Part shown: piece after piece, positions 5,168 to 63,955 of the stretch
Numbering within the stretch: the first letter of the stretch is position 1
Layout: each line of letters opens with the position of its first letter
NCBI GenBank assembly: GCA_041393775.1
Contig: JAWKJM010000004.1
Location: 384,701 to 448,700, forward strand
Direction of reading: 5' to 3'
Length of the DNA: 64,000 nt
From: Candidatus Nanopelagicales bacterium
GTDB lineage: Bacteria > Actinomycetota > Actinomycetes > S36-B12 > UBA10799
Notes under the pieces: model-generated
Told to the model about the DNA's origin: nothing
The model's input: only the letters and a program-made list of their open reading frames with translations
The model's database searches: none
Translations under genes and position numbers: made by a program

Positions 5168-5199
5168 GGAGGCACCCGAATCATCGGGCGCGAACCTCG

Positions 5200-5313
5200 T
5201 GTGACGAAGTTGCGGTGGCGAACCCTCGATTGTCACGAAGGTGTGCTGTCTCGAGCGCTCAGACCGCGCACCTTCGTGACACTGCGCGGGGCGGGCCACC
5301 AGCTTCGTCACAA
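5200..5313. repeat. Family B nested-palindrome element, copy B1
   Basis: TGTGACGAAGTTGCGG..TTGTCACGAAGGTGTGC..GACCGCGCACCTTCGTGAC..CTTCGTCACAA. It begins 32 nt after the mutM stop. Confidence 0.9.
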
Positions 5314-5514
5314 TCGTGTCCGCCGGGGATGTGCTGACGGGTCTGTTCGGCACTCGGATGAGCGAACACGCGGCGTCCAGACGGGTGTGTTCGCTTGACG
5401 CGCATCGCAGCGTTATGTCAATCTGATATATAGATGCGGCATCCCGTATCAAGAGGCAGCGCATCCATGCGGACGGTTTCGCGGAGCGCATGTGCATGGT
5501 TGTGGAGGACTCAG

Positions 5515-5863: not shown

Positions 5864-8800
5864 GTGCATCTGAGGAGTCTGACCCTTCGCGGTTTCAAGT
5901 CTTTCGCTTCTGCGACGACCATCGACCTCGAGCCTGGGATCACCTCTGTGGTCGGTCCGAACGGTTCGGGCAAATCCAACGTGGTCGACGCGATCGCCTG
6001 GGTCATGGGCGAGCAGGGGGCCAAGAGTCTGCGCGGCGGCAAGATGGAAGACGTCATCTTCGCGGGCACAGCGGGCAAGGCACCGCTGGGTCGCGCCGAG
6101 GTCGAACTCACCATCGACAACTCCGATGGCGCGCTGCCCATCGACTACACGGAGGTGACGATCCGGCGGACGTTGTTCCGCAGCGGAGGCTCCGAGTACG
6201 CGATCAACGGCCAGACATGCCGACTGCTGGACGTCCAGGAACTGCTGGCCGATTCAGGCATCGGCCGGGAGATGCACGTCATCGTCGGGCAGGGGCGACT
6301 GGACGCGATTCTGCGTGCGAGTCCGGAGGACCGGCGCGGTTTCATCGAGGAGGCCGCCGGGGTGCTGAAGCACCGTCGTCGCAAGGAGAAGGCCCTGCGG
6401 AAGCTGGAGCAGATCCAGTTGAACCTGCAGCGGCTCACCGATCTCGCCTCGGAACTGCGCCGTCAGCTCAAGCCGCTCGGACGCCAGGCCGAGGTCGCCC
6501 GTCGAGCCGTGACCATCCAGGCCGACGTGCGGGATGCGCGGCTGCGTCTGCTGGCCGACGACGTCGCCGGGGTCCAGCACGATCTCGCCCAGGAACAGGC
6601 GGATGAGAGCGCCGCGAAGGCCGAACGCGAAAGTGTTGAGGCGCAGCTCGAAGAGGCCCGAGCGCTTGAGGCCCGGCTGGAGCGACAACTGCAGGAGGTC
6701 GCCCCGCAGCTGCACGCTGCACGCACCCGGTCACTGGACCTGACCCGGCTGCGCGAGCGCACCAGCGGTCTGGTCGCACTCATCGTGGAGCGGCGCCGAT
6801 CGCTCGAACGTGAGCAACTGGAGTTCAGCTTCGGTGTGGACCCCGAGGATCTTCAGCGACAAAGTGAAGCCGTGGCGCAGCAGGTCGTCGACCAGGCGGC
6901 GGCAGCGCAGGAGGCTCAGCGCCAGTTCGAATTGGCCCGGACCCAGGCAGAGGAGATCGCTGCGCGTGTGCGCGATGAGCAGGCGAAGGTGATGACTGCG
7001 GAGAAGGCGCTGACCGAGTACCGCCAGCAAGTGGCGGCCGTCGAGCAGGCAGTCTCCGGAGGGCAGCGACTGGTCGAGGCGACCCAGATCCGGGCATCCC
7101 GGCTCGCGCAGCAGCAGGAACCCGCGCAGCAAGAGGCGCAGGACGCCGCTGCCGCGCTGGCCGCCCTTCCGACCGAGGAGACGCCGACCGAACAACTCGA
7201 CATGACGGCCGCCGACCAGGCGATGAGTGCTGCCGAGGAAGCCGTCGAACTGGCACGAGCCGAGTTGTCGACGCAGGAGCAGCAGCGCGCATCGCTGACT
7301 GCCCGCTGCGAGGCCCTCCGGGCCGCTGTCGCACATTCGCCGGAGCACTCCCTCGCCGCGGAGGTCCAGGAGGGGTCCCTGGACGGTCTGATCCGGGTCC
7401 GCCCCGGCTACGAGAAGGCAGTCGCCGTTCTGCTGGGGGCGCATGCCCGGGCGACTGTTCTGCGAGCAGGGGTCTCGTCCCTCGAGATCCTGGAGGCCGC
7501 CGGCGCCGACGTGGCCCTGCGGCTGGTGGTGCCGAGCCCGGTGTGGTCCGGCCAGGCCGGCCCGGAGGCGGCCTTGTCGTTCATTGAGGCACCCGAATCC
7601 CTGCGCGGCGCATTGAGTCAGATGCTGGCCAAGTGCGTGATCGTGGCCGACCTGGATGCGGCGTCGGCAACGGTCGCCGACGATCCCGAGGTGCTCGCCG
7701 CGACCGTGGACGGTCAGGTGGTCGGGCGCGGCATGGCCTGGCAGGGCTCTGACGGCGCGAACGTCATCGCCCTGCGCAACGCACTCGAGCAGGCCACCGA
7801 CGAGTTGGTGACCACCGAGTCCTGCTGGCGCCGAGCCGTGGATCATGTGGCGCGGGTGGAGGCCGAGGCCGCAACCAGCCGTGCCCATCGCGATGAGGTG
7901 CGCAACGCGGTGGCCCAGCAGCAGGCCCAGGCGGCAGCGGCCGCCGAACGCGACGTCCATGTCCGCAAGCGGGCCGCGGAGACCGCTCGTCGGCTCGAAC
8001 TCCTGGAGTCGGAGCAGTCGGAGGTGGCGCAGGCACTTACCGAGCAGCAGGCCGACGTGAAAGCGGCGGGGGACCGACTCGAACGGTTGCGCGAGGCCGG
8101 CGCTCCGGATGTCGATCGCTCCGCCTTGACCGAGCTGCTGGGCGGCCAGGAGCGAGCTCGTCAGGTGCATCACGAAGCGAGCCTGTCGGCACGATCAGCG
8201 CACGAGCGGCACGACAGCGTCCAGGCCAGACATGCGGAACTGCTCCAGCAGACTGAGCAGGCGCGGGAGGCCGTTGAGGCGGCAGTTCGCCGTCGGGTCC
8301 AGCGTGAGCAAGCGCTGACCACCTTGGGCCGCCTCGAGGAACTCGCCGGTCGAACAGCGGTTCTGGTGGACCAGGACGCTGCTGTTGCGGAGACCGACCT
8401 GTCGGTGCTCGAACGCGACCAGTTGCAGGTGCAGGCCGATCACGCGCGGGCCCGCGAGGCGACGCTGGAACTCGCAGAGCATGTGCAGCGACTGACCCAG
8501 GACGTCCACCGCGACGAGGTGCTTCGCGCCGGCAAGCGCGCAACGCTGGAGCAACTCACGGAGAAGGCGCTCGAGGAGTTCGGACTGACCATCGAGAACC
8601 TGGTGGGTGAATACGGCCCTGAGCAGATGATCGCCGGTGCCGACGGCGAGATGATCGCCTACGACAGGGGGCAGCAGCAGCGCCGGCTGAGAGAGGCAGA
8701 GCGGGGCCTGGCCCTGCTGGGCAGGGTCAACCCGTTGGCGCTCGAGGAGTTCGCCGCTATGGAGGAGCGTCACACCCACCTCGTCACCCAGATCGAAGAC

Positions 8801-9322
8801 GTCAAGAAGAGCCGGGAGGATCTGCTCGACCTGATCGCGGACGTGGACAACCGGGTGCAGCAGGTTTTCTCCGAGGCGTACGCCGACGTCGCGCGGGAGT
8901 TCGAGTACACGTTCTCGCGGCTGTTCCCGGGCGGGCAAGGACGATTGGTCCTCACGGATCCCGAGGACTTGCTGGTGACCGGTGTGGAGGTCGAAGCCCG
9001 GCCGCCCGGGAAGAAGATCAAGCGACTGTCACTTCTGTCCGGTGGTGAGCGCAGCCTGACGGCGGTGGCTTTCCTGGTCGCGTTGTTCAAGGCCCGACCC
9101 TCACCGTTCTACTTGCTGGACGAGGTCGAGGCGGCTCTGGACGATGTCAACCTGGGGAGGCTGATCGGCTTGCTCGAGGAGCTGCGGGAGACCTCGCAGT
9201 TGCTGGTGATCACTCACCAGAAGCGCACCATGGAGATGGCCGACGCCCTGTACGGGGTGACCATGCGGGCCGGGGTGACCGAGGTGATCAGCCAGCGGAT
9301 GCGGCAACTCCAGCCAGTCTGA
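5864..9322 (+). CDS. smc: chromosome segregation protein SMC
   Basis: 1152 aa with the Walker A motif GPNGSGKSN, long coiled coils, a hinge, the C-terminal LSGGE signature and Walker B LLDEVEAALD. AGGAGG precedes GTG 5864. Confidence 0.97.
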   Translation: MHLRSLTLRGFKSFASATTIDLEPGITSVVGPNGSGKSNVVDAIAWVMGEQGAKSLRGGKMEDVIFAGTAGKAPLGRAEVELTIDNSDGALPIDYTEVTIRRTLFRSGGSEYAINGQTCRLLDVQELLADSGIGREMHVIVGQGRLDAILRASPEDRRGFIEEAAGVLKHRRRKEKALRKLEQIQLNLQRLTDLASELRRQLKPLGRQAEVARRAVTIQADVRDARLRLLADDVAGVQHDLAQEQADESAAKAERESVEAQLEEARALEARLERQLQEVAPQLHAARTRSLDLTRLRERTSGLVALIVERRRSLEREQLEFSFGVDPEDLQRQSEAVAQQVVDQAAAAQEAQRQFELARTQAEEIAARVRDEQAKVMTAEKALTEYRQQVAAVEQAVSGGQRLVEATQIRASRLAQQQEPAQQEAQDAAAALAALPTEETPTEQLDMTAADQAMSAAEEAVELARAELSTQEQQRASLTARCEALRAAVAHSPEHSLAAEVQEGSLDGLIRVRPGYEKAVAVLLGAHARATVLRAGVSSLEILEAAGADVALRLVVPSPVWSGQAGPEAALSFIEAPESLRGALSQMLAKCVIVADLDAASATVADDPEVLAATVDGQVVGRGMAWQGSDGANVIALRNALEQATDELVTTESCWRRAVDHVARVEAEAATSRAHRDEVRNAVAQQQAQAAAAAERDVHVRKRAAETARRLELLESEQSEVAQALTEQQADVKAAGDRLERLREAGAPDVDRSALTELLGGQERARQVHHEASLSARSAHERHDSVQARHAELLQQTEQAREAVEAAVRRRVQREQALTTLGRLEELAGRTAVLVDQDAAVAETDLSVLERDQLQVQADHARAREATLELAEHVQRLTQDVHRDEVLRAGKRATLEQLTEKALEEFGLTIENLVGEYGPEQMIAGADGEMIAYDRGQQQRRLREAERGLALLGRVNPLALEEFAAMEERHTHLVTQIEDVKKSREDLLDLIADVDNRVQQVFSEAYADVAREFEYTFSRLFPGGQGRLVLTDPEDLLVTGVEVEARPPGKKIKRLSLLSGGERSLTAVAFLVALFKARPSPFYLLDEVEAALDDVNLGRLIGLLEELRETSQLLVITHQKRTMEMADALYGVTMRAGVTEVISQRMRQLQPV

Positions 9323-10682: not shown

Positions 10683-10920
10683 GTCCGAGAACGGCTCGTG
10701 TCCGCGGTGGTCGCCCGCGAGGTTAGAGAACGTGCACGAGGTTAGAGAATGCACGTGTGGCTTCTCTAACCTCGTGCACGTTCTCTAACGCGAGCGACTT
10801 CCGCCCGGCATTTCCCGGGCTGAACGCCGCGGCCGGCCACGGCCATGGACGACTAGCGCGAGCGATTTCCGCCCGGCATCTCCCCGCCTGAACGCCGCGT
10901 TCGCGGATGACGAACGCGGA
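10683..10920. repeat. Family A modular palindromic element, copy A1 (core hairpin 10721-10789)
   Basis: Core GGTTAGAGAACGTGCACGAGGTTAGAGAA-TGCACGTGTGGC-TTCTCTAACCTCGTGCACGTTCTCTAAC. It is followed by about two ~66-bp units (GCGAGCGAyTTCCGCCCGGCAT..CTGAACGCCGCGGCCGGCCACGGCCATGGACGACTAG). Confidence 0.9.
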
Positions 10921-11162
10921 ACCGCTCCCACACGTCAGCGCGCGAGCGCTTCGTCCCCGCGAACACCGGGCCAGCGCCGCACCCACCTCGTGAAACGACG
11001 AGAACAGATCTGCGGGGTTCCGGGGCCCTGGTCTGCCCTCGGCTGCCGAGTCGGGCAGTTGAAAGCGGGCGCTGCGCAGGGGGATTCGGTGCGGTGACCC
11101 GACCCCATGGGCCTCATCGACGCGCCCCTATGAACGGCGTTCCGGACGCCGGATGACGCGCC

Positions 11163-11279
11163 ATTGTCACAGAGTCGAGGGGTTCGGAAGGTGCCTTGTC
11201 ACGAAGGTGGGGGTGCGGCAGGCGTAGAGCGCGCACCTTCGTAACACAGTCGGCCGGGGTGCCTGTACCTTCGTCACAA
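11163..11279. repeat. Family B nested-palindrome element, copy B2 (left outer arm disrupted)
   Basis: ATTGTCAC[agagtcgaggggttcg]GAAGGTGCC TTGTCACGAAGGTGG...GCGCACCTTCGTAACAC...CCTTCGTCACAA. Confidence 0.85.
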
Positions 11280-11414
11280 AGGGCGGGCGGGAGCGTTGGC
11301 CCGCAACCCGCGGGTCGTCACAGCTGCACCTGAGGCTGACGGGCACATCGCCGCCCTGTGTCGCCGAGCAGGCCCTGTTGACGAAACACATTGTTAACGT
11401 GAACCCCCGCATCC

Positions 11415-31354: not shown

Positions 31355-31715
31355 GTGTGGCGGGCACCTGCGGCCGGTTGAGGGCCAGGCGGAAATCGCT
31401 CGCGTTAGTCGTCCATGACCGTGGCCGGCCGCGGCGTTCAGGCGGGCAAATGCCGGGCGGAAACCGCTCGGGTTAGAGAACGTGCACGAGGTTAGAGAAG
31501 CCACACGTGCGTTCACTAACCTCGTGCAGGTTCTCTAACCTCGCGACCATTCTCTAACCTCGCGGCCCACTTCTGCGGCGACCGGGTACACGCGGCATTT
31601 TCGGACTAGAGAACGTGCACGAGGTTAGAGAAGCCACACGTGCATTCTCTAACCTCGTGCAGGTTCTCTAACCTCGCGGCCAACTCCTTCGCCGAGTACA
31701 CGAGCCGTTCTTGGG
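31355..31715. repeat. Family A element, copy A2 (two hairpin cores: 31471-31560 and 31607-31674; opposite orientation to A1)
   Basis: One and a half L-units, then core 1 (with a third arm copy CTCGCGACCATTCTCTAACCTCGCGG), an R-unit, core 2 and an R-like unit. Confidence 0.9.
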
Positions 31716-32926: not shown

Positions 32927-33023
32927 ACCCCCAACCTAATCCGAAAACGACGCTCTTGTGGTGGGTCACTGCAGGCGGATGATCCCTCGTGAGAACCACC
33001 GGTCGTCAGGGTAGGCAGGACTG

Positions 33024-33268
33024 GTCCGAATACGGTTGGTGTATCCGCTTGCCGAGCAGTTGGCCGCGAGGTTAGAGATCGTGCACGAGGTTAGAGAACG
33101 CACGTGTGGCTTCTCTAACCTCGTGCACGATCTCTAACGCGAGCGATTTCGCCCGGCATTTTCCCGCCTGAACGGGCGGCCGGCCACGGCCATGGACGAC
33201 TAACGCGAGCGATTTCGCCCGGCAATACCCGCCTGAACGCGCGACCGGCCACGGCGGGGGGTGACTAA
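33024..33268. repeat. Family A element, copy A3 (core 33070-33138, two L-units)
   Basis: GGTTAGAGATCGTGCACGAGGTTAGAGAA-CGCACGTGTGGC-TTCTCTAACCTCGTGCACGATCTCTAAC followed by 2 x ~66-bp units. The last unit ends on the tesB stop codon. Confidence 0.9.
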
Positions 33269-39094: not shown

Positions 39095-40368
39095 CGCTGG
39101 TCGGGATCGTGGCGCTTGTGCTTGCGCTGGTCTTCTCGATCGCGCTGCACGAACTCGGGCACATGGTTCCGGCCAAGAGGTTCGGCGTCAAGGTCACCCA
39201 GTACATGATCGGCTTCGGTCCGACGCTGTGGTCGAAGAAGTCCGGTGACACCGAGTACGGCGTCAAGGGCGTTCTGCTCGGCGGCTATATCAGGATGATC
39301 GGGATGTTCCCCCCGGGACCTGACGGCAAGATCAAGGCGAGCAGTACAGGGCGGCTGGGCACCCTGGTCGAGCAGGCGCGTGAGGAGTCCGCCGCCGAGA
39401 TCGTCGAACCGGGCGATGAGAAGCGTGTGTTCTACCTGTTGTCCGTTCCGAAGAAGATCGTCGTCATGATGGGCGGACCGGTGATGAACCTGGTCATCGC
39501 GATCGTGCTGTTCACGATCGTGTTCGCCGGTTTCGGAACCCCGACGCCGACCACGACCGTTTCGACCGTGACCGCGTGCGTGCCCACCGCGACCGACCCT
39601 GAGGGTACTTGCGTCAGCGGTGCGGGCGGACCCACCGGTGCCGCAGAAGCTGGGCTCCAGCCGGGTGACCAGATCGTCGCCTGGGACTCCGTGCAGGTCG
39701 CCGAGTGGCCCGGACTGAGCCAGGCGATCAGGGACTCGCAGCCCGGCTCCCACGCGGTGACGGTTATGCGGGATGGCCGCGAAGTCACCCTCGAAGTGCC
39801 GTTGACCACCATCGACGGCAGCCTGCTGGGCGAGAGTGCGTCTCCCCGCGGGTTCCTGGGGGTTTCGCCACAGGTCGAACTGCGCCCCCTGCCGATCAGC
39901 GCGGTGCCTGGGCAGATGTGGGACATTTCGATCCGGTCCGGACAGGCGTTGCTGAGCTTCCCCGCCAAGATGGTGGGTCTGACTGAGGCCGCCTTCACCG
40001 ATCAGGCACGTGACCCGGATGGCCCGGTCGGGGTCGTGGGCGTTTCCCGCATCAGCGGTGAGGTGGCCTCGGCTGACGCGCCGCCGAGCTGGCGGATCGC
40101 GCAGTTCCTGGCGATCGTCGCCTCGCTGAACCTGTTCCTGTTCTTGTTCAACCTGCTGCCCATACTGCCGCTGGACGGCGGGCATGTGGCAGGTGCGCTC
40201 TACGAAGGCAGCCGCCGGCAGGTCGCCAAGTTCCGCGGCCGCCCTGATCCGGGTCCGGTCGACGTCGCCCGCATGCTACCCGTGGCCTACACCGTGGCGC
40301 TGGTGCTGATCGCGATGAGTGTGATCATCCTCTGGGCCGACATCGTCAAACCGATCCGGCTCGGGTAA
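39091..40368 (+). CDS. rseP: M50 site-2 zinc metalloprotease (RseP/Rip1-like)
   Basis: HELGHM zinc motif, a PDZ region and the C-terminal [12 protein letters not shown] motif. ATGA overlap with dxr. Confidence 0.9.
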
Positions 40369-40379
40369 CGCCGGGGCGA

Positions 40380-40494
40380 TTGTGACGAAGGTGCGGACGT
40401 CCACCCTGCTTCGTCACGAAGGTGCGCGGTCGCGAGCGCTTAGACCGCGCACCTTCGTAACGCGGCGCCGGGATGGGCCGCACCTTCGTCACAA
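40380..40494. repeat. Family B nested-palindrome element, copy B3 (best preserved)
   Basis: TTGTGACGAAGGTGCGGAC...CGTCACGAAGGTGCGCGGTC-gcgagcgcttag-GACCGCGCACCTTCGTAAC...GGCCGCACCTTCGTCACAA. It starts 12 nt after the rseP stop. Confidence 0.92.
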
Positions 40495-40564
40495 TCGGGT
40501 CGGTCAGCCCCGGCCGCCCGCCGGCGGAGCGGGCGGGTTTGACCCCATGGGCGATAATTGACCC

Positions 40565-41716: not shown

Positions 41717-42546
41717 GCGGCACGGTACGTCTTCTCACCGGTGCCGACGCGCCGGATTTCCGCAGGTTGCTGCACTCCGACCCGGTGTCCTACGCGATGG
41801 TGTCCGAGCGCATGCAAGTGGTCGGACTCGGGGCGTCGCTGGGCGCGGAGGTGTGGGGGTGGTTCCCCGGCGAAACCCTTACGGCGGCCCTGTTCCTGGG
41901 GGCCAACGTCGCGCCTATCGCAGCCGACCAGGCCGCTATCGAGGCGTTCGCGGGGCGCGCCCGGCTCACACCCCGACGATGTTCGTCCATCGTCGGTCCG
42001 GCGGACGCGGTGGTCTCGTTCTACCGGCTCGTCAGACCCACATGGGGCTCGGCGCGGGAGGTCCGGGAGCAACAGCCCATGTTGGTGCTCGACGACGATC
42101 CGCACATCGACGCTGATCCGCGGCTACGTGCGGCCACGATGGACGACATCGACGTGTTGTTCCCCGCGTGCGTCGCGATGTTCACCGAGGAGTTGGGGGT
42201 CAGTCCGCTGCAGCACGACGGCGGGGCGGCCTACCGGCGACGGATCGCGCAACTGATCCGGCAGGGCCGGGCCCTGTTGATCACCGAGGGCGATCGCGTG
42301 TTGTTCAAGGCAGAGGTGGGAGTCGTCGCCGACGACGTTGCCCAGATCCAAGGGGTCTGGGTGGATCCGTCCCGTCGCGGCCACCATGTCTCCGAGCCGG
42401 CGATGGCGGCGGTGGTTCGATTGGTGCAGCGGGAGTTCGCGCCGATCGTGAGTCTGTACGTCAACGAGTTCAACCATGCGGCCCTGGCCTCCTATGCGCG
42501 CGTCGGCTTCCGGCAAGTGGGTGAGTTCGCGACAGTGTTGTTCTAG
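41713..42546 (+). CDS. GNAT family N-acetyltransferase (DUF4081-GNAT type found after ispG in actinobacteria)
   Basis: C-terminal GNAT core [24 protein letters not shown]...[22 protein letters not shown] overlap with ispG. Confidence 0.75.
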
Positions 42547-42770
42547 GCTCGACATCCACCCAATGGGTGCCGGACGGGTCTGGATGTGCGACGGCGCCCT
42601 GTTGGTGCCGGATTCCAGGTTCTGTGGACACTCGGGATCGGCTGTCTGGAAGGCACCTTGCAGGTGGAGCACCTCGGCGGAGGGCTGCCCTGTCACGAGG
42701 ACCTTCAACCAGCGCGAGGCTCGGTGGTGCCTAGCCCAGAAGAATCCTGGACCTGGTGACGACGGCAGCC

Positions 42771-43082
42771 GGTTAGCGTTAGAGATCCACGGCGTTCAGG
42801 CGGGAGAATCCGGGGCGCAGACCGCTCGGGTTAGTGGTCCATGGCCGTGGCTGGCCGCGGCGTTCAGGCGGGGAAATGCCGGGCGGAAACCGCTCGGGTT
42901 AGAGAACGTGCACGAGGTTAGAGAAGCCACACGTGCGTTCACTAACCTCGTGCACGATCTCTAACCTGGCGACCATTCTCTAACCTCGCGGCCCACTTCT
43001 GCGGCGACCGAGTGCACCGGGCCATTTTCGGACCAGAGAACGGCCAACTTCTGCGGCGACCGAGTATGCGAACCGTTTCCAG
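42771..43082. repeat. Family A element, copy A4 (core 42897-42985; two L-units, two R-units)
   Basis: Most complete copy: L-variant, L-unit, a hairpin core with a third arm, then 2 R-units (GGCCCACTTCTGCGGCGACCGAGTGCACCGGGCCATTTTCGGACCAGAGAAC / GGCCAACTTCTGCGGCGACCGAGTATGCG..). Confidence 0.9.
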
Positions 43083-43117
43083 GCCTATGGCCGACCAAAT
43101 GTCTAGCCGGAACCCGA

Positions 43118-43492
43118 ATGCGAGGACCCAATGGGAACCCCAACCGGAACCAGGCCGAAGGTTCGCTGACCCGTTCGGTGGGAGTCCCGTTTCCGCCTCG
43201 GGCACCGTGGCGTGGCCGGATTCCTGCTGTCTACTTCCAGGTGTTGCGGTACCTCGGCGGCGCCGAGCAGTACATGCGCCTGCAGGTGTACGTGCGGGAA
43301 GGACCCCAGGCCCATCGGGACTTAGGGCGGCGGGCACCATCGGCGCTGTTCGAGTCGCTCTGGACCGTTACAGCCGCCGCCATCTCGCGCGCGCCCTGCT
43401 TCGACTACGCATTCAAGCGCGCGCTCATGTGGGTCCTCTTCTCCGAAGCTTCCGGGTATCACCAGGGCGGGCTCCGTAGGCTTGGGGCATGA
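43118..43492 (+). CDS. possible small hypothetical protein coupled to the TPP enzyme (true start unclear: GTG 43241 or ATG 43274 possible)
   Basis: The stop overlaps the downstream ATG (ATGA). The C-terminal ~85 codons are GC3-rich by eye (..LRYLGGAEQYMRLQVYVREG..FDYAFKRALMWVLF..). I recognise neither an RBS nor a homolog. Confidence 0.3.
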   Translation: MRGPNGNPNRNQAEGSLTRSVGVPFPPRAPWRGRIPAVYFQVLRYLGGAEQYMRLQVYVREGPQAHRDLGRRAPSALFESLWTVTAAAISRAPCFDYAFKRALMWVLFSEASGYHQGGLRRLGA

Positions 43493-45207
43493 ACGGAAGC
43501 CAATACCTGGTGGAGGCGGTCCACGCCCAGGGTGTCGACCACTGCTTCATGGTCCCCGGTGGCCTCGACGACGCGTTCATGGGACCGATGACGGCTACCG
43601 ATGGCCTGCGCACCGTCGTGGCCGCGTTCGAGGGGGGCGCCGCATACCTGGCCGACGGTTACGCGCGGGCCTCCGGTCGCCTCGGCGTGGCCTTCGGAAT
43701 CGGTGGGCCGGGCGTGCTCAACATGGCCACGGCCCTTGCCGCGGCCCGCGCAGACCGGACCCCCGTGCTGGCTGTCAGCGGGGAGGTGCCTACGAGTTGG
43801 GAGGGGCTGGGCGGATTCCAGGACGCCTCCGGGGCCGCACTCGACGACACTGCGGCACTGCGACCCCTTACCGGCCTATCACTGAACGTGTCGGCGCCCC
43901 AGCTGCTCCCCCACCACCTGCGTCAGGCCGTTACCCACGCCCTGGTCGAACGGGAGCCGGTCCACCTGGCCGTCCCGGTCGACGTCCAGAAGGCGACCGT
44001 CGACACGCCGTGGGCGCCGGTGCCCGAGCGCCTGTGGTCTCCGCACCACCTGGACCAGGACGCCTTCGACCGCATCCTCGATCTGTTCGGCCCCGCCGAC
44101 CCGGCCCGAAACGTGGTGCTGCTGGTGGGACCGGGGATCCAGTGGGCCGACGCCTTCGACGACCTGGTCCGCGTCGCCGAGCGCTACGAAATCCCGGTGG
44201 CCACCACGCTGGCGGGCAAGGGCGTGTTCCCCGAAGACCATCCCCTGGCCTTGGGGGTGTTCGGCTACGGCGGATCGCGCTGGGCCATCGACGCCCTGCT
44301 CGACCCGTCCGTCGAGGTTCTGGTGGTCCTGGGGACCGGGCTGTCCCAGCGCGACACCCTGCAGTGGGACCCGAAGATGCTTCCCTCCCGTGCGATGGTG
44401 CACGTCGACGCCGACCCGCTGGTGATCGGGCGGACGTGGCCGAGCGAACTGCCCGTGGTCGGCGACTGCGGCACGGCGCTGCGCCACCTGCTCGAACTGG
44501 ACGGGGACCTCGAGCGGGGACTCGACGCCGGGCGCCGCACCCGCAGGGAGTTCCTGGCCGCCATCCGGTCGCGCGGTCCAGCCTGCTACGCACCCGGGGA
44601 CCGGGGCAGTGACGCCCTACCCATGCACCCGGCCCGGGTCGTCTCCGAGCTGCGGGCCGCCTGCCCCCGGGACACGATGCTCAGCGTCGACTCCGGCGCG
44701 CACCGGGCGTGGTTCGCCGAGTACTGGGACGCCTACGGCCCCCGGACCCACTTCTCCTTGACCAACCTCGGCCCCATGGGTGGGGCCATCCCCCTGGGGA
44801 TCGGCGCCAAACTGGCCCGCCCAGAGGCACCCATGGTCATCGCCACCGGCGACGGCTGCATGCTCATGCACGGCATGGAACTCCACACGGCGGCCCGCGA
44901 GGGGGTGCCGGTGGTGGTCGCCCTCATGGACAACCGGTCTTACGGCAACATCTGGTACCGGGCCCACCCGATGGGACCCGGACCCGAGGCCCTCACCGAC
45001 ATTCCCGGCATGGACTGGGTGGGCTTCGCCCGCTCCGTCGGCGCGGAGGGGGAGGTCGTGGAGCGACCGGACCAGATCGCCGCCGCACTGCGTCGGGGGC
45101 TCGATGCCGGCGGTCCCTACCTACTGGATCTGCGCATCGACAAGCACTTCACGACGCCGGTAAGCCCGTGGCGACAGGCGGTCAAGGAGTGGGAGGACGA
45201 CCACTGA
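43489..45207 (+). CDS. thiamine-diphosphate-dependent enzyme (acetolactate-synthase-large-subunit-like)
   Basis: N-terminal Pyr domain (GGPGVLNMATALAAA) and the TPP motif GDGCMLMHGMEL...ALMDNRSYG. Confidence 0.85.
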   Translation: MNGSQYLVEAVHAQGVDHCFMVPGGLDDAFMGPMTATDGLRTVVAAFEGGAAYLADGYARASGRLGVAFGIGGPGVLNMATALAAARADRTPVLAVSGEVPTSWEGLGGFQDASGAALDDTAALRPLTGLSLNVSAPQLLPHHLRQAVTHALVEREPVHLAVPVDVQKATVDTPWAPVPERLWSPHHLDQDAFDRILDLFGPADPARNVVLLVGPGIQWADAFDDLVRVAERYEIPVATTLAGKGVFPEDHPLALGVFGYGGSRWAIDALLDPSVEVLVVLGTGLSQRDTLQWDPKMLPSRAMVHVDADPLVIGRTWPSELPVVGDCGTALRHLLELDGDLERGLDAGRRTRREFLAAIRSRGPACYAPGDRGSDALPMHPARVVSELRAACPRDTMLSVDSGAHRAWFAEYWDAYGPRTHFSLTNLGPMGGAIPLGIGAKLARPEAPMVIATGDGCMLMHGMELHTAAREGVPVVVALMDNRSYGNIWYRAHPMGPGPEALTDIPGMDWVGFARSVGAEGEVVERPDQIAAALRRGLDAGGPYLLDLRIDKHFTTPVSPWRQAVKEWEDDH

Positions 45208-48118: not shown

Positions 48119-48343
48119 CCGGTTAGCCTCAGGCGTTCGTGTTGGACGTTCTTGAGTCCGAAAAGGGCTCGCGTACTCGGTAGCAGCAGGAGTTGGCCGC
48201 GAGGTTAGAGGTTGTCCACGAGGTTAGAGAAGCCACACGTGCATTCTCTAACCTCGTGCACGTTCTCTAACCCGAGCGTTCCCGCCCGGCATTTTGTCCG
48301 CCTGAACGCCGCGGCTGGCCACAGCCGCGGATGAGCAACGGGA
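48119..48343. repeat. Family A element, copy A5 (core 48203-48271; loop inverted relative to all other copies; left arm degenerate)
   Basis: GGTTAGAGGTTGTCCACGAGGTTAGAGAA-GCCACACGTGCA-TTCTCTAACCTCGTGCACGTTCTCTAAC followed by one L-unit. Confidence 0.88.
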
Positions 48344-51869: not shown

Positions 51870-51970
51870 TCACCGAGAGCCCGGATGTGGCGCCGGTCCA
51901 ACAACGAGGGTTCATTACCGGGAGTTCTGGGCGGACGAGAGCCCCGGGCGCGGCGCTCCATGCGCCCTTG

Positions 51971-52084
51971 TGTGACGAAGTTGCGGGGGCCGAACGCGCA
52001 TTGTCACGAAGGTGCGCGGTTGCAGCTGTTCGGACCGCGCACCTTCGTAACACAACGCCCGGGTGACCGGCTACTTCGTCACAA
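51971..52084. repeat. Family B nested-palindrome element, copy B4 (inside the nusA-ylxR-infB operon gap)
   Basis: TGTGACGAAGTTGCGGGGGCC...TTGTCACGAAGGTGCGCGGTT-gcagctgttcg-GACCGCGCACCTTCGTAACAC...CTACTTCGTCACAA. Confidence 0.9.
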
Positions 52085-52202
52085 ACGTGACCGCTGGGCC
52101 GACTCGCATGGATCACGCGGGCATCCACCTGAATCCGCCGCCAGCGAACGCATTGTCGCCGCCGTTGACGGGCCACGCTAGACTTGTCCCTGGATTGCCG
52201 CG

Positions 52203-52600: not shown

Positions 52601-55357
52601 GTGGCCAAGGTCCGGGTCTATGAACTCGCACGCGAGTTGGGCGTGGAGAGCAAACAGCTCATCACACAACTGGCTGATATGGGCGAGTTCGTCAAGTCCG
52701 CATCATCAACGATCGAAGCCCCGGTCGTGCGCAAACTGCGCGATGCCGCCAAGTCGGCACCGGCGAAGGAGGCCGCGTCGGGGGCGAAGAAGGCTCCCGC
52801 CAAGCCGGCGCCGCGGCCGGCCAAGAAGGCTGTCGAAGAACCCTCGGCGCCGACTGCTCCTGCGTCGGCTCCCGCGGCACCAAAGCCCGCAGCTCCCGCC
52901 CCGCCAAAGCCCACGCAGCAGCCGCAGGCTCCTGCCGCACAGGCCCCCACTCCCGCCGCCCCCAAGCCCGGCCCCCGGCCCGGCAACAACCCGTTCGGCT
53001 CCCCGGCCGCGCCCCGTCCCGGCAACAACCCGTACGGCTCGCCGGCGCCTCGCCCGGGCAACAACCCGTACGGCGGCGCAGCTCCTGCTGCCCGCAGTGG
53101 TGGAGTCCCAGGGGCACCGCGGCCCAACCCCGGCATGATGCCGCCGCGCCCGCGACCGGCCCCGGCACGACCAGGTGGACCCGGTCGTCCGGGCGGTGCG
53201 CCCGGCGGTAGGGTCCGTCCCGGCGGACCCGGTGGCCCTGGGCGTCCCGGCGGCCCCGGCGGTTTCGGCGGTCGCCCTGGCGGTCCCGGTGGCGCCGGTC
53301 GTCCTGGCGGAGCGCCTGGCGGAGGGGGTGGTTACCGTCCAGGTGGCGCCCCGGGCGGTGGCGGTCGCCCCGGCGGCCCGGGTGGGCCTCCCGGCGGTGG
53401 TTTCGGTGGGCGTCCCGGCGGTCCCGGGCGGCCCGGCGGCCCGGGTGGTCGAGGCCGTCCCGGCGGCAAGTCGCGCGCCCGCAAGAGCAAGCGCGCGAAG
53501 CGCCAGGAGTTCGACAACATGGAGGCCCCGACGGTCGGTGGCGTGCGGATTCCGCGTGGTGACGGCCGTACGGTGCGACTTCCGCGTGGCGCGACCCTGA
53601 CCGACTTCGCGGACAAGATCGATGCGAACCCCGGTTCGTTGGTGCAGGCCCTGATCACCCTGGGAGAGATGGCCACCGCCACCCAGTCGCTGTCCGACGA
53701 CACACTGATGCTGCTCGGCTCGGAGATGAACTTCAAGGTCGAGGTCGTCTCGCCTGAGGACGAGGACCGCGAACTGCTCGAGAGCTTCAACCTCGAATTC
53801 GGTGAGGACGAAGGTGGCGACGAGGCGCTGGAAAAGCGGCCCCCGGTCGTGACCGTCATGGGTCACGTCGACCACGGTAAGACGAAACTGCTCGACGCGA
53901 TCCGTCACACCAACCAGGTGGCACGCGAGGCTGGAGGCATCACCCAGCACATCGGCGCCTACCAGATCCAGGCCGACATCGATGGTCAGGACCGCGCGAT
54001 CACTTTCATCGACACGCCCGGTCACGAGGCGTTCACCGCCATGCGTGCGCGAGGCGCCAAGGTCACCGACATCGCAGTGCTAGTTGTCGCAGCTGACGAC
54101 GGAGTCAAGCCGCAGACGATCGAAGCGCTGAACCATGCACAGGCCGCAGAAGTGCCGATCGTGGTCGCGGTCAACAAGATCGACAAAGAGGGTGCTGACC
54201 CGCAGAAGGTCCGCGGGCAGCTCACCGAGTACGGCCTGGTTGCCGAGGAGTTCGGCGGCGACACGATGTTCGTCGACGTCTCGGCCAAGAGTCAGATCAA
54301 CATCCATGAGTTGCTGGAAGCGGTGGTGCTCACCGCGGACGCCTCGCTGGATCTGCGGGCCAACCCCGAGCAGGACGCCCAGGGTGTCGCGATCGAGGCA
54401 CACCTCGACAAGGGCCGCGGCCCGGTGGCCACAGTCCTGGTGCAGCGGGGAACGCTCAAGCACGGTGAGAGCATTGTGATCGGCGAGGCTCACGGCCGGG
54501 TCCGGGCGATGCTGGACGAGAACGGCGACCCCGTGGACGAGGCCCTGCCGTCACGACCGGTCCAGGTGCTGGGCCTGACCGCCGTTCCGGATGCAGGTGA
54601 CACGTTCCTGGTCGTGTCCGAGGACCGGATCGCCCGTCAGATCGCCAACATCCGGCAGGCGCGCGAGCGCAACGCCGAGCTGGCGGCACGTCGTGGCCGG
54701 CGCACGCTCGAGGACATCCTGCAGGGCCTGGAGAAGGGTGAGACCGGCACGCTGAACCTGATCATCAAGGGTGATGTGTCGGGTTCGGTGGAGGCGCTCG
54801 AGGATGCCCTCCTGAAGCTGGACGTGGGCGACGAGGTCGACCTGCGGGTCATCCACCGAGGGGTGGGCGCCATCACGCAGAACGATGTCAACCTGGCCAC
54901 GGTGGACAACGCGATCATCATCGGCTTCAACGTCCGCACCGCCGAGCGCGTCGCGGAACTCGCCGAACGCGAAGGAGTGGACATCAGGTACCACTCGGTC
55001 ATCTACGCGGCGATCGACGAGGTGGAGCAGGCACTCAAGGGCATGCTCAAGCCCGTATACGAGGAAGCTGCGCTGGGGACCGCCGAGATCCGGGAGGTCT
55101 TCCGCTCCAGCAAGGCCGGCAACATCGCCGGTTGCCTGGTGCGCACTGGGACGATCCGGCGCAACTCCAAGGCGCGGGTCATCCGTGACGGCGTGGTCGT
55201 CGCGGACAATCTCACCATCGACTCGCTCAAGCGTTTCAAAGACGACGCGACCGAGGTCAAGGACGGCTACGAGTGCGGTATCGGACTCGGTTCGTTCAAC
55301 GACATCAAGGTCGATGACGTCATCGAGACGTTCGAATTGCGGGAGAAGGCGCGCTAA
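52601..55357 (+). CDS. infB: translation initiation factor IF-2
   Basis: 918 aa. G-domain [20 protein letters not shown] and NKID motifs. AGGAGAG precedes GTG 52601. Confidence 0.97.
52970..53470 (+). repeat. low-complexity Pro/Gly codon-repeat tract in the IF-2 N-terminal region
   Basis: ([12 protein letters not shown])x3 followed by many GGPGRPGG-type units. It generates spurious ORFs in other frames. Confidence 0.8.
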
Positions 55358-61137: not shown

Positions 61138-61248
61138 CCTCGCCGGTTCACACAGAACACGGTGATCTCCACTCGCACCAACGCGACACTGGTTGCGGCA
61201 ACGTCCTCGGGGAATCCGGGGCTAGACGCTTTGAACATACCCCGGGCC

Positions 61249-61458
61249 TAGTCCGAAAATGGCTGGTGTACTCGGTCGCCGCAGAAGTGGGCCGCGAGGT
61301 TAGAGAATGGTCGCGAGGTTAGAGATCGTGCACGAGGTTAGTGAACACACGTGTGGCTTCTCTAACCTCGTGCACATTCTCTAACCCGAGCGATTTCCGC
61401 CCGGCATTTCCCACCTGAGCGGGCGGCCGCCACGGCCATGGATGACTAACGCGAACCC
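61249..61458. repeat. Family A element, copy A6 (core with third arm 61298-61385; one R-unit, one L-unit)
   Basis: TAGTCCGAAAATGGCTGGTGTACTCGGTCGCCGCAGAAGTGGGCCGCGAG-GTTAGAGAATGGTCGCGAGGTTAGAGATCGTGCACGAGGTTAGTGAA-CACACGTGTGGC-TTCTCTAACCTCGTGCACATTCTCTAAC-L unit. Confidence 0.9.
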
Positions 61459-61558
61459 TTCGGCCCACACCCGTTCGTCTGCGTCACATGACCCGTTCTG
61501 CCCGGCAACCCCCGGCAGTCTGTGCCCAGCCGGATGAAGCCGTGAGACCGGTCAGACG

Positions 61559-62647
61559 TCAACGCCTGCGGGGTTTGGGCTTGAGCAGTCCTTCCAAGGT
61601 GTAGGCCGCTAGTTTCGGCGTGAAGTCGACTCGGAGGAATCCGAGGTTCTCCGACCACTTGCTCGGGTCGACCCCCCGGTCACGTCCGCTGTAGAAGAAC
61701 AGCGGACCAACCCAGCGCCAGCGCTTCTGACCCCGGATGCCCTGGACGTAGGTACGCGCCTGTCTGCGCTCGCTCACGGATTTCTCGCTGGTCCCGGTGG
61801 GCGCCCCGAATTCAGTGAGCCAGATCTTCTTGGAGGCGTCTGCGTGACGGACCATCACTCGGCGGACAAGTGGCAGTCTTTGGAAGGCGTTCCAGTCCCC
61901 GGTGTTCGGCGTCGACGGCAAGGCTGGGAAGCAATAGGGATGGACTGAGATGGCGTCGAAGCTCCTGTCGGCACCGTACTTGTAGAGCAGTGCGGTGAAG
62001 CGACTGGGCGAAACGTCCTTCCCACCTGCCACGTCGAGTGCCGGGCCCAGGTTTCCCGCGATGATCTTGGCGGTCGGATCGGCTCGTCGGATCGATCGGG
62101 CTGCCTTGATCAGCATGCGCGCGTAAAGACGGGGTTGAGGAGCCGGATACCAGAACACTTCGAGGTTCGGTTCGTTCCAGATCTCCCAGTGGCGCACACC
62201 GGTCGGCCCGTACCTCTTGACCGCGGCTTTCAGGAACCTTGTGAAGGCGCTGAGGTGTTTGGGGGGGGCTTTGCTCTCGCCCGGGACACGGGTCGCCCAC
62301 AGTGGGCTGTGTGCGGGTACTGCCAGCACCCGCAATCCGTGTCGGTGCGCCGCTGCCACGATCCGGTCTGGCCCACTCCAGTCGTACCGGCCGGGAGTCT
62401 GCTCGATCGCGGCCCAATTCAGGTCGACGCGAAGCCACTTGACCCTCAAGCTCGAGTAGATGTCGAGTTCGCGCTCAAGATCCTGGTCGGAGAGCAAGAA
62501 CACGTCGTACCCCTGTGAGATGCCCACGTTCGGGTCCGACGATGCGCGCGCAGTAGGCGGGCTCAGGGCCACGGCAGCGATCAGGGCCGGGATCACGAGG
62601 GCCCACGCGCGCAACCGTCGCAGGGCGCTGGTCGGACAACTCGTCAT
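61559..62647 (-). CDS. secreted clan GH-A (TIM-barrel) glycoside hydrolase, GH5/GH39/PslG-like
   Basis: Signal peptide, acid/base motif HWEIWNEPN and nucleophile motif IWLTEFGAP. The longest ORF (to 62830) overlaps the neighbouring gene. Confidence 0.75.
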   Translation of the reverse strand: MTSCPTSALRRLRAWALVIPALIAAVALSPPTARASSDPNVGISQGYDVFLLSDQDLERELDIYSSLRVKWLRVDLNWAAIEQTPGRYDWSGPDRIVAAAHRHGLRVLAVPAHSPLWATRVPGESKAPPKHLSAFTRFLKAAVKRYGPTGVRHWEIWNEPNLEVFWYPAPQPRLYARMLIKAARSIRRADPTAKIIAGNLGPALDVAGGKDVSPSRFTALLYKYGADRSFDAISVHPYCFPALPSTPNTGDWNAFQRLPLVRRVMVRHADASKKIWLTEFGAPTGTSEKSVSERRQARTYVQGIRGQKRWRWVGPLFFYSGRDRGVDPSKWSENLGFLRVDFTPKLAAYTLEGLLKPKPRRR

Positions 62648-62651
62648 CGAA

Positions 62652-63800
62652 TCACGCACGCCGCTCCGCCGCGCCGCCGATTCCGATTGCCCAGGCACGT
62701 GCTGACTCGCCTCGGGTGGGGGTGGGGTTTGTGGATAGGGCGGTGGTGAGGGCTGCTCGGGCGGGTTTGGGGGTGAAGTTGTGGCGGACGAAGCCGAAGT
62801 TCTGTTCGCGGTCGGTGGGGTCGGTGCCACGGTCGCGGCCGCCGTAGAAGAATAAGGGGCCGGTCCAGGGCCAGGTGTCGGCGGCGGTGATGCCGGCGGT
62901 GAGCAGGACGGCTTGGGTGGTTTCGCTGACGGCGCCGGTGTCGGTGCCGGTCGGGGCGCCGTATTCGGTCAGCCAGATCTGCTTGGCGGTGTCGCCGTTG
63001 GCGGTCATCGCGTCGTGGATCAGTGGTAGTTGTTGGAAGGTGTTCCAGCCGGCGGTGGTGGTGTCGTCGGGCATTGCCGGGTAGCAGTAGGGGTGCACGG
63101 ACAGGGCGTCGAAGTGGGCTTTGGCGCCGTTGGCGTACATCTTGGTGGTGAACACCGTCGGGGACACCTGGGAGCCGTCGGCGGGGTCGGTGGCCGGTGA
63201 GAGGGCCCCGGCCAGGACGGTGGCGGTGGGGTCGACGGCTTTGATGGCGGGGTAGGCGGCTTTGAGCAGGGCGGTGTAGGCGGCCGGGTTGGGTTTGGGT
63301 GCCCAGAAGTTGTTCAGGTTCGGTTCGTTCCAGATTTCCCAGGCTTTGACACCTAGTGGTGCGTAGCGGGCGGTGGCTTTGGCTACGAAGGTGGCGTAGT
63401 CGGCCGGGCTGGTCGGCCCGGCGTGGGTGTTGCCCGGCACCGAGGTGGCCCAGTTCGGGCTGTAGGTGGGCAGTGCCAGGATCTGCAGCCCGCGGCTGTT
63501 GGCGGCGTTGACGACCCGGTCGGTGCTGCTCCAGTCGAAGGTTCCTTTGCGGGATTCGATGCTCGGCCAGTCAAAATCGACCCGCACCCAGCTCATGCCG
63601 GTGGCCTTGTACAAATCCAGTTCGGCTGCCAGATCGCTGTTGGACAACCACAACAGATCCGCCCCCGGCGAAATACCGATCTCCGGGCGATCTTCGGCGT
63701 GCGCGGTCGAGGGCGTCACGGTGGCAGCGGCGAGGAGGGCTGGGACGGTGAGGGCTTGGACAACCAGTCGTCGAAGCGGGTTCGCAATCCTGCCCATCAT
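62652..63800 (-). CDS. secreted clan GH-A glycoside hydrolase, tandem paralog of 61559-62647
   Basis: Signal peptide ending AHAEDR, AWEIWNEPN and IWLTEYGAP motifs, colinear with the neighbouring gene throughout. Confidence 0.75.
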   Translation of the reverse strand: MMGRIANPLRRLVVQALTVPALLAAATVTPSTAHAEDRPEIGISPGADLLWLSNSDLAAELDLYKATGMSWVRVDFDWPSIESRKGTFDWSSTDRVVNAANSRGLQILALPTYSPNWATSVPGNTHAGPTSPADYATFVAKATARYAPLGVKAWEIWNEPNLNNFWAPKPNPAAYTALLKAAYPAIKAVDPTATVLAGALSPATDPADGSQVSPTVFTTKMYANGAKAHFDALSVHPYCYPAMPDDTTTAGWNTFQQLPLIHDAMTANGDTAKQIWLTEYGAPTGTDTGAVSETTQAVLLTAGITAADTWPWTGPLFFYGGRDRGTDPTDREQNFGFVRHNFTPKPARAALTTALSTNPTPTRGESARAWAIGIGGAAERRA

Positions 63801-63844
63801 GTTCCCGACGATACGTCGAATGCCCGGTGCCCGCGACCAACGCA

Positions 63845-63955
63845 CTAGTCATCCCGGGCCGTGGAGGGCCGGCCGTTCAGGCGGGAAAAGGTCTGGCGGA
63901 ATCGCTCGCGTTAGTCGTCAATGACGTTCGGGCGGGTAATGCCGGGCGGAAACTG
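63845..63955. repeat. Family A flanking L-units only (two units, no hairpin core visible before the window end), copy A7
   Basis: CTAGTCATCCCGGGCCGTGGAGGGCCGGCCGTTCAGGCGGGAAAAGGTCTGGCGGAATCGCTCGCG TTAGTCGTCAATGACGTTCGGGCGGGTAATGCCGGGCGGAAAC. Confidence 0.8.

Follow-up and report, generated by a model that had tools for sequence, protein, structure and literature searches.

Interspersed hairpin repeats such as repetitive extragenic palindromes (REPs), REPINs and bacterial interspersed mosaic elements (BIMEs) are well studied in proteobacteria and hardly in uncultured Actinomycetota. The BIMEs of E. coli and the BOX elements of pneumococci are mosaic interspersed repeats that consist of few modules in varying number, lie between genes and form long stem-loops. 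The ends of the transposons Tn7, Mu and Tn5090/Tn402 are arrays of transposase-binding sites, and in the case of Tn5090/Tn402, 19-bp repeated sites have reportedly been found at these ends. REPINs are doublets of REPs that form hairpins and are mobilised by RAYT transposases, for example in Pseudomonas fluorescens SBW25 (PMC3337134, PMC3116915). Here, an interspersed repeat family is described that partly resembles these systems and occurs at seven loci in a 64-kb stretch of DNA (contig JAWKJM010000004.1, hereafter the window) from an uncultured actinobacterium, 'Candidatus Nanopelagicales', which is represented by a metagenome-assembled genome (MAG). The analysis is focused on the element at the fourth of these loci (the focus element). 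With a probability of roughly 55%, the family is a lineage-specific, non-autonomous mobile repeat with a mosaic foldback structure, of the kind of REPINs, BIMEs or miniature inverted-repeat transposable elements (MITEs), the phased boxes of which are putative sites of protein recognition. The family is previously undescribed; the kind of element is known, and what is new is a phased-box architecture that is conserved across genera while the surroundings differ.

The likeness to REPINs lies in the two inverted halves that are separated by a short spacer and form a hairpin of ~80-100 nt, in the intergenic, abundant and lineage-specific occurrence, and in complex tandem and nested arrangements. 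However, each half consists here of 2-6 phased 19-nt units with a 9-bp box instead of a single imperfect palindrome, the host is an actinobacterium, and in the MAG HK-STAS-ACTI-17 (GCA_020636995.1), which represents the sister genus, the inner stems are non-complementary. Also, no RAYT (HUH/Y1) gene was seen in the window, in a second assembly of the same species (L056), or among the recurrent open reading frames (ORFs) of 27 loci of HK-STAS-ACTI-17. With BIMEs and BOX elements the family shares the small set of modules, their variable number and combination, the intergenic position and the long stem-loops, but there is no sequence relation, all modules start or finish with a common GTTAG/CTAAC box, and the central units keep a strict 19-nt phase that is conserved between the genera. 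Like the ends of Tn7, Mu and Tn402, the two arms carry several direct sites of ~19-22 bp, are inverted to each other and can differ in their number of sites (here 3 versus 2), but these 'ends' are only 12 nt apart, no gene of the TnsB, TniA or MuA type was found, and 5'-TG...CA-3' termini and 5-bp duplications are not seen, which leaves a resemblance of layout only.

The original prediction, made from the sequence alone, had not recognised any known family, and the searches agree with this. Rfam gave 0 matches at the gathering score for the whole window, and a permissive search at the focus locus returned only chance-level hits (E >= 0.65). The focus element had no blastn match in plasmids and phages, and the box pattern had none in viral contigs. 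The exact hairpin GAGGTTAGAGAA-N12-TTCTCTAACCTC was absent from 185,579 species genomes, a collection that evidently does not contain the window's own genome. In the searchable full-text literature the box sequence occurs only in unrelated primers, and by keyword nothing relevant was found on actinobacterial MITE, REPIN or IS481 repeats. An autonomous insertion sequence (IS) with the same ends was not found in the window or in the related-genome sequences examined. The earlier comparison with MIRU-type repeats had implied a mycobacterium, which the host is not: the window's ProS is identical to MEZ5185693.1 of a 'Candidatus Nanopelagicales' MAG. Also the suggestion that AGGTTAG could be a half-site of the iron regulators IdeR/DtxR had to be abandoned: the iron box, a 19-bp palindrome (TTAGGTTAGSCTAACCTAA), has 0 matches even at up to 3 mismatches, all boxes of the family lie inside arrays, and the inverted GGTTAG/CTAACC boxes are at least 24 nt apart, versus 1 nt in the IdeR/DtxR palindrome. 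An intrinsic terminator consisting of a GC-rich hairpin and a T-run was rejected as well, with 0 terminator-like sites in 42400-43600, and no sigma-70-like promoter was found at the focus locus.

Architecture of the repeat family

The repeat is real and by far exceeds chance. With up to one mismatch, GAGGTTAGAGAA has 22 matches in the window versus 0.05 expected (0 of 100 shuffles), and all of them are intergenic (10719-10773, 31488-31675, 33068-33122, 42914-42987, 48220-48255 and 61296-61369). On reading all loci, the predicted modular palindromic layout was seen again, with boxes spaced by 19 nt, a 12-nt loop containing CACGTG, copies in both orientations and variable numbers of modules. In its full form the element is an oriented foldback that begins with R-units, followed by 2-3 direct 19-nt units (GAGGTTAGAGAACGTGCAC), the loop (GCCACACGTGCR / TGCACGTGTGGC or the complement), 2-3 inverted units, and the L-units. 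The distance from one GTTAG to the next is 19 nt in 16 of 26 cases. L-units, which like the R-units were mapped by blastn-short, have 65-68 nt and are present once or twice per element, R-units have ~45-53 nt and are present in 0-2 copies, and some elements contain tandem double cores. Copies diverge from each other in substitutions as well as in module number, and their density is about one element per 8-9 kb. The ends of the composite read TAGTC...ATGGCC and GGCCAT...GACTA, a match that is short and lies inside the repeated modules. In a minority of the copies the loop or centre is flipped relative to its flanks, namely at locus 5, whose loop (48232-48243) is opposite in polarity to its R and L flanks as in no other core of the window, and in the copies L045 and L021 of HK-STAS-ACTI-17. 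Such inverted centres would be expected if the segment between inverted arms can flip.

Not all of the seven loci contain the same composite, as had been proposed: six have cores, but locus 7 has only L-units within the window. Likewise, the proposed limits needed revision, as locus 3 starts ~85 nt earlier (~32940), the focus element continues from the previously assumed end at 43082 to ~43110, and locus 2 turned out to comprise two complete cores.

Evidence for copying and insertion

Two dispersed stretches, 31388-31601 and 42814-43027, are 92% identical over 214 nt that span L, core and R, and loci 2a, 4 and 6 share a third left unit with the spacer TGGTCGC and a GTGAA variant of the box. 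As dispersed copies thus have derived states in common and are so similar over all three parts, the composite propagates as a unit.

Relatives were retrieved via homologues of ProS and RibF. Their DNA is ~78% identical to that of the window and collinear with it, and the aligned blocks are interrupted precisely where the elements lie. The expected difference in presence at orthologous sites was found at three sites, which are empty in the relatives. The DUF2804/thioesterase junction measures 22 bp in the relative L051 and 338 bp in the window, the proS/GSDH junction is a 4-bp gap or an overlap in L050, L053 and L054 and 351 bp in the window, and the site of locus 6 between a gene for 339 amino acids and a glycosidase gene has 7 bp in the closest relative L057 (RibF 85%) and 421 bp in the window. 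No GGTTAG arrays were detected in the 5-22 kb of syntenic DNA from each of six genomes. At locus 3, both junctions read CTAATCC, where L051 has the empty site AACCTAGCC, and some of these bases come from the ends of the element itself. The claim that six of the seven loci sit where accessory genes interrupt the synteny could not be upheld: the genes on either side of loci 3, 5 and 6 adjoin each other in the relatives, with the element and its immediate flanks as the only interruption, and only locus 4 adjoins a variable gene block. In the proS-GSDH spacer of L051 (11900-12120), a different hairpin repeat, GCGACCAACCTCCGGA...TCCGGAGGTTGGTCG, is present twice, which means that this site was settled by one repeat family in one relative and by another family in another.

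A second assembly of the same species (L056, GCA_041393795.1) is 99.965% identical over 8.6 kb and contains an identical locus 6 that was assembled independently; the family is therefore no artefact of a single assembly. Locus 7 is a full composite with two full cores there (8639-8900), followed by a gene with a 966-bp copy that is 99.9% identical to window positions 62714-63679. The two assemblies diverge at window position 63953, inside an L-unit, from where the window runs into unrelated sequence, and this divergence reflects either strain polymorphism, rearrangement at the repeat, or a join made during the assembly of one of the MAGs.

The related family in the sister genus

HK-STAS-ACTI-17 had at one point been taken for a distant genome, but the identities of 26-31% came from paralogues, and its ProS is 90% identical to that of the window. 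The relaxed pattern GGTTAGAGA-N10-GGTTAGAGA occurs at no fewer than 27 loci of this MAG, which contains at least 29 arrays, all at sites other than those of the window and none in the region syntenic to it. An array consists of 2-6 direct units (GGTTAGAGATCGGCATCCY), a centre (GGTTAGCCCTATACGGCCGTGGGACTCTAACC), and inverted CTAACC boxes at the same phase, and the GTTAG spacing is 19 nt in 100 and 20 nt in 34 of 143 cases. The GGTTAG core of the box is near-invariant in both families; the AGA behind it is invariant in the window (94-100%) and the majority form (~69%) in HK-STAS-ACTI-17, whereas the 10-nt spacers are wholly different (CGTGCACGA in the window, TCGGCATCC in HK-STAS-ACTI-17) and the L- and R-units of the window are absent from the HK-STAS-ACTI-17 sequences compared. 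As the centre of the sister-genus arrays is identical to the tail of the window's L-unit at ~19 of 23 positions in a manual alignment, the two families are taken to be homologous. Beyond these genomes, an array of the HK-STAS-ACTI-17 type is present on the metagenome contig L006, and the unrelated metagenome contig L014 has two decayed, core-only copies of the window type, so that neither L nor R is required for the core to exist and spread. A unit variant of locus 5, GTTAGAGGTTGT, is also found in a copy on L014.

Most metagenome matches to the two-box pattern are unrelated tandem repeats. Among unrelated metagenome contigs with a GC content of ~0.6, three have 3-4 tandem copies of GGTTAGAGAATGCAGGATG (L002 5917-5992, L011 198-254, L012 274-330), which share a 10-mer and the 19-nt period with the family and directly follow ...CTTACTATATG; this may be due to chance or to a distant use of the family's box. 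No gene family recurs beside the arrays when the 284 ORFs of the window and of 27 HK-STAS-ACTI-17 loci are clustered. A 335-amino-acid ORF between two arrays of the same orientation in HK-STAS-ACTI-17 (L017 3545-4552; C-terminus ...VEFDGLIKY...VVRVLW...) presumably resembles the DUF559 endonuclease-like genes that are common in actinobacteria, judged by eye only.

In HK-STAS-ACTI-17, 19 of the 29 arrays adjoin a decayed transposase of the rve type, with ...CAGATCCTGACCGACAACGGG... as the common following sequence. A right-hand terminal repeat of 25 bp (GTGACCAACCTCCCTGGACAGAAC) lies near 16 of these 29 arrays, and at 8 of them both terminal repeats are present (the left one being TGTTCTGTCCAGACAGGTTGGTCAC) and delimit units of 250-440 bp. 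These IS-derived units encode the frame-shifted pieces ILTDNG, YRP..TNGNVERFQRTLIHEW and TNLPGQN, and the internal deletions differ among the copies. Pfam on the remnants alone gave a weak match (rve, E = 0.11), and a stitched query, in which some residues were filled in by analogy with IS481-type transposases, matched only integrase-core proteins of the rve/rve_3 type. It is thus likely that the remnant is an IS481-like transposase, a label that comes in part from general knowledge of the IS481 family. Just outside the 25-bp repeats the sequences are box-like (GTCTGAG, GTCAGAG, CTCTGAC), which means that IS-derived units and arrays are nested within one another. The sister-genus arrays resemble MITEs of the IS481/IS3 (rve) type, with units of defined size, terminal inverted repeats and transposase remnants, but the window family has neither such terminal repeats nor remnants, and the boxes are distinct from the terminal repeats of the IS.

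Folding and stop codons

The whole composite is a foldback, in which pairing of R with L encloses the core (RNA -100 kcal/mol, z = -5.8). As DNA, locus 6 folds with z = -8.1 and the whole focus element, which forms one long foldback, with z = -4.3. The outer unit pair is fully complementary within each family despite the spacer difference between the families, whereas the inner unit pairs of HK-STAS-ACTI-17 have kept boxes and phase with non-complementary spacers. In the window, variants of the left arm such as GTGAA are uncompensated in the right arm, which is itself almost invariant. These unpaired inner spacers and uncompensated variants suggest selection on box and spacing more than on the stem, and such a selection probably acts through recognition by a protein. 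An 8-bp palindrome (CGTGCACG) in the window spacer has no counterpart in the sister-genus unit (GGTTAGAGATCGGCATCC).

Every core has stop codons in all six frames (for example 42894-42994), versus 0.4% of random 80-nt windows, because the TTAG/CTAA boxes recur with a period of 19 nt, or 1 modulo 3. A read-through fusion can therefore not arise from an insertion at the end of a gene. The six-frame stops may be a mere consequence of the box sequence, and they are, like the strong transcript hairpins, likely by-products and not the reason for the element's existence.

A model for the mobility of the element and its alternatives

If the family is a mobile mosaic repeat, its working part would be the paired inverted arrays of the 9-bp box GGTTAGAGA with 19-bp phase and short centre, which are arranged like a pair of multi-site transposon ends set back to back. 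The boxes would be recognised by a protein that is supplied in trans and drives the mobility, in all likelihood a transposase or recombinase whose gene lies in another part of the genome. R-units, core and L-units would be copied together to further places between genes, frequently where a gene ends and inside or next to older copies. Afterwards the number of units would shift through slippage or unequal recombination, and the centre could flip within its arms. For the sister genus, amplification of this box array would have taken place mainly together with an IS481-like defective insertion sequence.

Several observations weigh against such a mobile repeat. The window, 10 kb beyond it and ~216 kb of HK-STAS-ACTI-17 yielded neither an autonomous partner nor a candidate for the binding protein. 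The terminal repeats of HK-STAS-ACTI-17 (0 matches at up to 3 mismatches) and the transposase remnants are missing from the window. The absence of arrays from the relatives rests on samples of 5-22 kb, and because the nearest relatives are so distant (only ~78% identical in DNA, 85% in the RibF protein), an empty site cannot separate gain here from loss there at every locus. The extra DNA at locus 6 relative to L057 includes ~110 bp on each side that are not recognisably repeat, and a clean target-site duplication is not definable at loci 3, 5 and 6 or around the IS-derived units of HK-STAS-ACTI-17.

A more specific and tentative possibility, to which a low probability is given, is that the phased GGTTAGAGA array is a recognition cassette that stands alone, is portable, serves a clade-specific DNA-binding protein or recombinase, and attracts further insertions. 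It would represent a transposon reduced to two multi-site ends 12 nt apart that is kept across genera while its surroundings are exchanged, and new copies as well as IS481-like elements would nest into existing arrays. If this is true, the family would form a class of its own within bacterial mobile DNA, or a 'landing pad' in the genome, and would not be another MITE.

The GTTAG head of the boxes resembles the GTAG head of classical REPs, and also other features would suit a REPIN-RAYT system, in which the inverted arms are single-stranded DNA hairpins that are cut and pasted by a single-copy HUH/Y1 transposase (IS200/IS605-like). The inverted halves form near-perfect hairpins around a short spacer (DNA z = -8), the window spacer has its palindrome, the centre is inverted in some copies, and an intergenic, species-specific and abundant family fits the description of REPINs (PMC3337134). 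Such a system is nevertheless unlikely, since no Y1 transposase is present in the sequences examined (the gene between the two arrays of L017 being DUF559-like by eye only), an arm consists of 2-6 phased boxes and not of one palindromic REP, the inner units of the sister genus have conserved boxes in spite of their lack of complementarity, and the left-arm variants are uncompensated. A function for the host is doubtful to a similar extent. The arrays could bind a nucleoid-associated or regulatory protein, or act in RNA as terminator, mRNA stabiliser or translation insulator, and three of the seven loci are indeed located between convergent genes and the others at gene ends, the folds are very stable, every core stops all frames, one element even supplies the stop codon of a gene, and the box is conserved across genera. 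However, the sites are not conserved among relatives, both orientations relative to transcription occur, there is neither a U-tract or terminator pattern nor an Rfam family, the boxes are never isolated near promoters (22 of 22 are inside arrays), and arm mismatches are uncompensated.

It is still somewhat harder to believe that the array is a passenger without mobility of its own, which is carried as cargo on unrelated vehicles (IS481-derived in HK-STAS-ACTI-17, the R/L foldback here) and grows by replication slippage. The many arrays of HK-STAS-ACTI-17 beside rve remnants (19 of 29, with 16 near the right-hand repeat and 8 between both), the range of unit numbers from 2 to 6 and the species-specific L and R agree with this. 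On the other hand, HK-STAS-ACTI-17 also has arrays without IS flanks (L016, L017, L021, L034), core-only copies exist on L014, it is difficult to see why inert cargo would keep its box and phase across genera, and the box-like flanks of the IS-derived units suggest that the IS inserted into arrays instead of carrying them. That the repeats were created or misplaced by metagenome assembly is highly improbable: although the two assemblies of the species part inside an L-unit at 63953, locus 6 is identical in both, related arrays are present in other MAGs and in raw metagenome contigs, and the copies differ by substitutions and module number.

Individual loci and their genomic context

The window is a conserved housekeeping stretch with a GC content of ~0.665, which includes recG, rnc, mutM, smc, ftsY, amt, glnD, ffh, rpsP, rimM, trmD, rplS, lepB, dprA, xerC, rpsB, feoB, ispG, proS, nusA, infB and ribF. 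Scans of substantial ORFs confirmed the earlier statement that there is no transposase in these 64 kb; all those scanned were of the housekeeping type except for the sole recombinase, a XerC-type gene at its usual position beside dprA. No tRNA genes were found in the window. The positions of the elements are given in Table 1.

Table 1. Repeat loci in the window and parts of the focus element (locus 4), with the strand where assigned
Feature	Position	Strand	Description
Locus 1	10683..10925	+	Degenerate R, core with two units per arm, one full and one truncated L-unit; between ftsY and amt
Locus 2	31355..31715	-	Two complete tandem cores (31468-31568, 31601-31682), L-units, one shared R-unit
Locus 2, neighbours			Convergent feoB and DUF2804 gene
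Locus 3	32940..33268	+	Decayed R, R, core, two L-units; fills the DUF2804/thioesterase junction
Locus 4, whole composite	42771..43110	-	R-to-L polarity on the minus strand
Locus 4, neighbours			DUF4081/GNAT gene ends at 42546; TPP-enzyme gene starts at 43489
Locus 4, outer end	42771..42829	-	Two GTTAG boxes 6 nt apart (GGTTAGCGTTAGAG), then a degenerate L-unit
Locus 4, complete L-unit (reverse complement)	42830..42896	-	94% identical to the L consensus
Locus 4, arm 1	42897..42925	+	Direct boxes GGTTAGAGAA at 42897-42906 and 42916-42925, 19 nt apart; spacer CGTGCACGA
Locus 4, loop	42926..42937	+	GCCACACGTGCG with CACGTG, 12 nt; loop polarity marks the orientation of the element
Locus 4, arm 2	42938..42987	+	Inverted boxes TTCACTAACC, ATCTCTAACC and TTCTCTAACC, 19-nt period; the third has no partner in arm 1
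Locus 4, R-units	42988..43066	-	R-unit 42988-43033 (96% identical to consensus) and partial R-unit 43041-43066
Locus 5	48119..48343	+	Terminal CCGGTTAGCC box, R, core, variant L; between convergent proS and GSDH gene
Locus 6	61249..61449	+	Canonical complete copy: R, three units, loop, two units, L; within a 421-bp spacer
Locus 7	63846..63953	-	Two degenerate L-units only (in this window)

At locus 3, the final CTA of the element (33265-33267) is the stop codon of the thioesterase gene. The ~110 bp on each side of locus 6 (61138-61248, 61450-61558) are only weakly box-like (CCGGTTCACAC, GGCTAGAC, GGTCAGACG) and may be an older, decayed copy that was later invaded by the present element. Between loci 6 and 7 (61559-63845), the minus strand carries a pair of adjacent paralogous genes for GH5/GH39-like glycosidases, with segments that are 83% identical and predicted ORFs that overlap.

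A second, unrelated interspersed repeat (family B) is found at 5170-5350, 40351-40531, 51941-52121 and 11190-11330, upstream of smc, ispG, the infB region and amt. Copies of its box GTCACGAAGGTG / CACCTTCGTSAC, some inverted and some direct, surround a GC-rich hairpin, and its design of several boxes in inverted arms is that of the family described here (family A). The Gly/Pro-rich tandem repeats in the N-terminal region of infB (52950-53470) are ordinary for an actinobacterial IF-2.

Implications

A constant box and spacing amid changing spacers, flanks and sites points to a specific protein partner that would be experimentally retrievable. The family interrupts synteny and is likely to cause contig breaks and conflicts between assemblies of these MAGs, such as the one at the window's end, and it affects gene calls, as an element can supply stop codons and place strong hairpins where genes end. 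A cognate enzyme, if there is one, would represent a new pairing of a transposase with its ends in a little-explored phylum.

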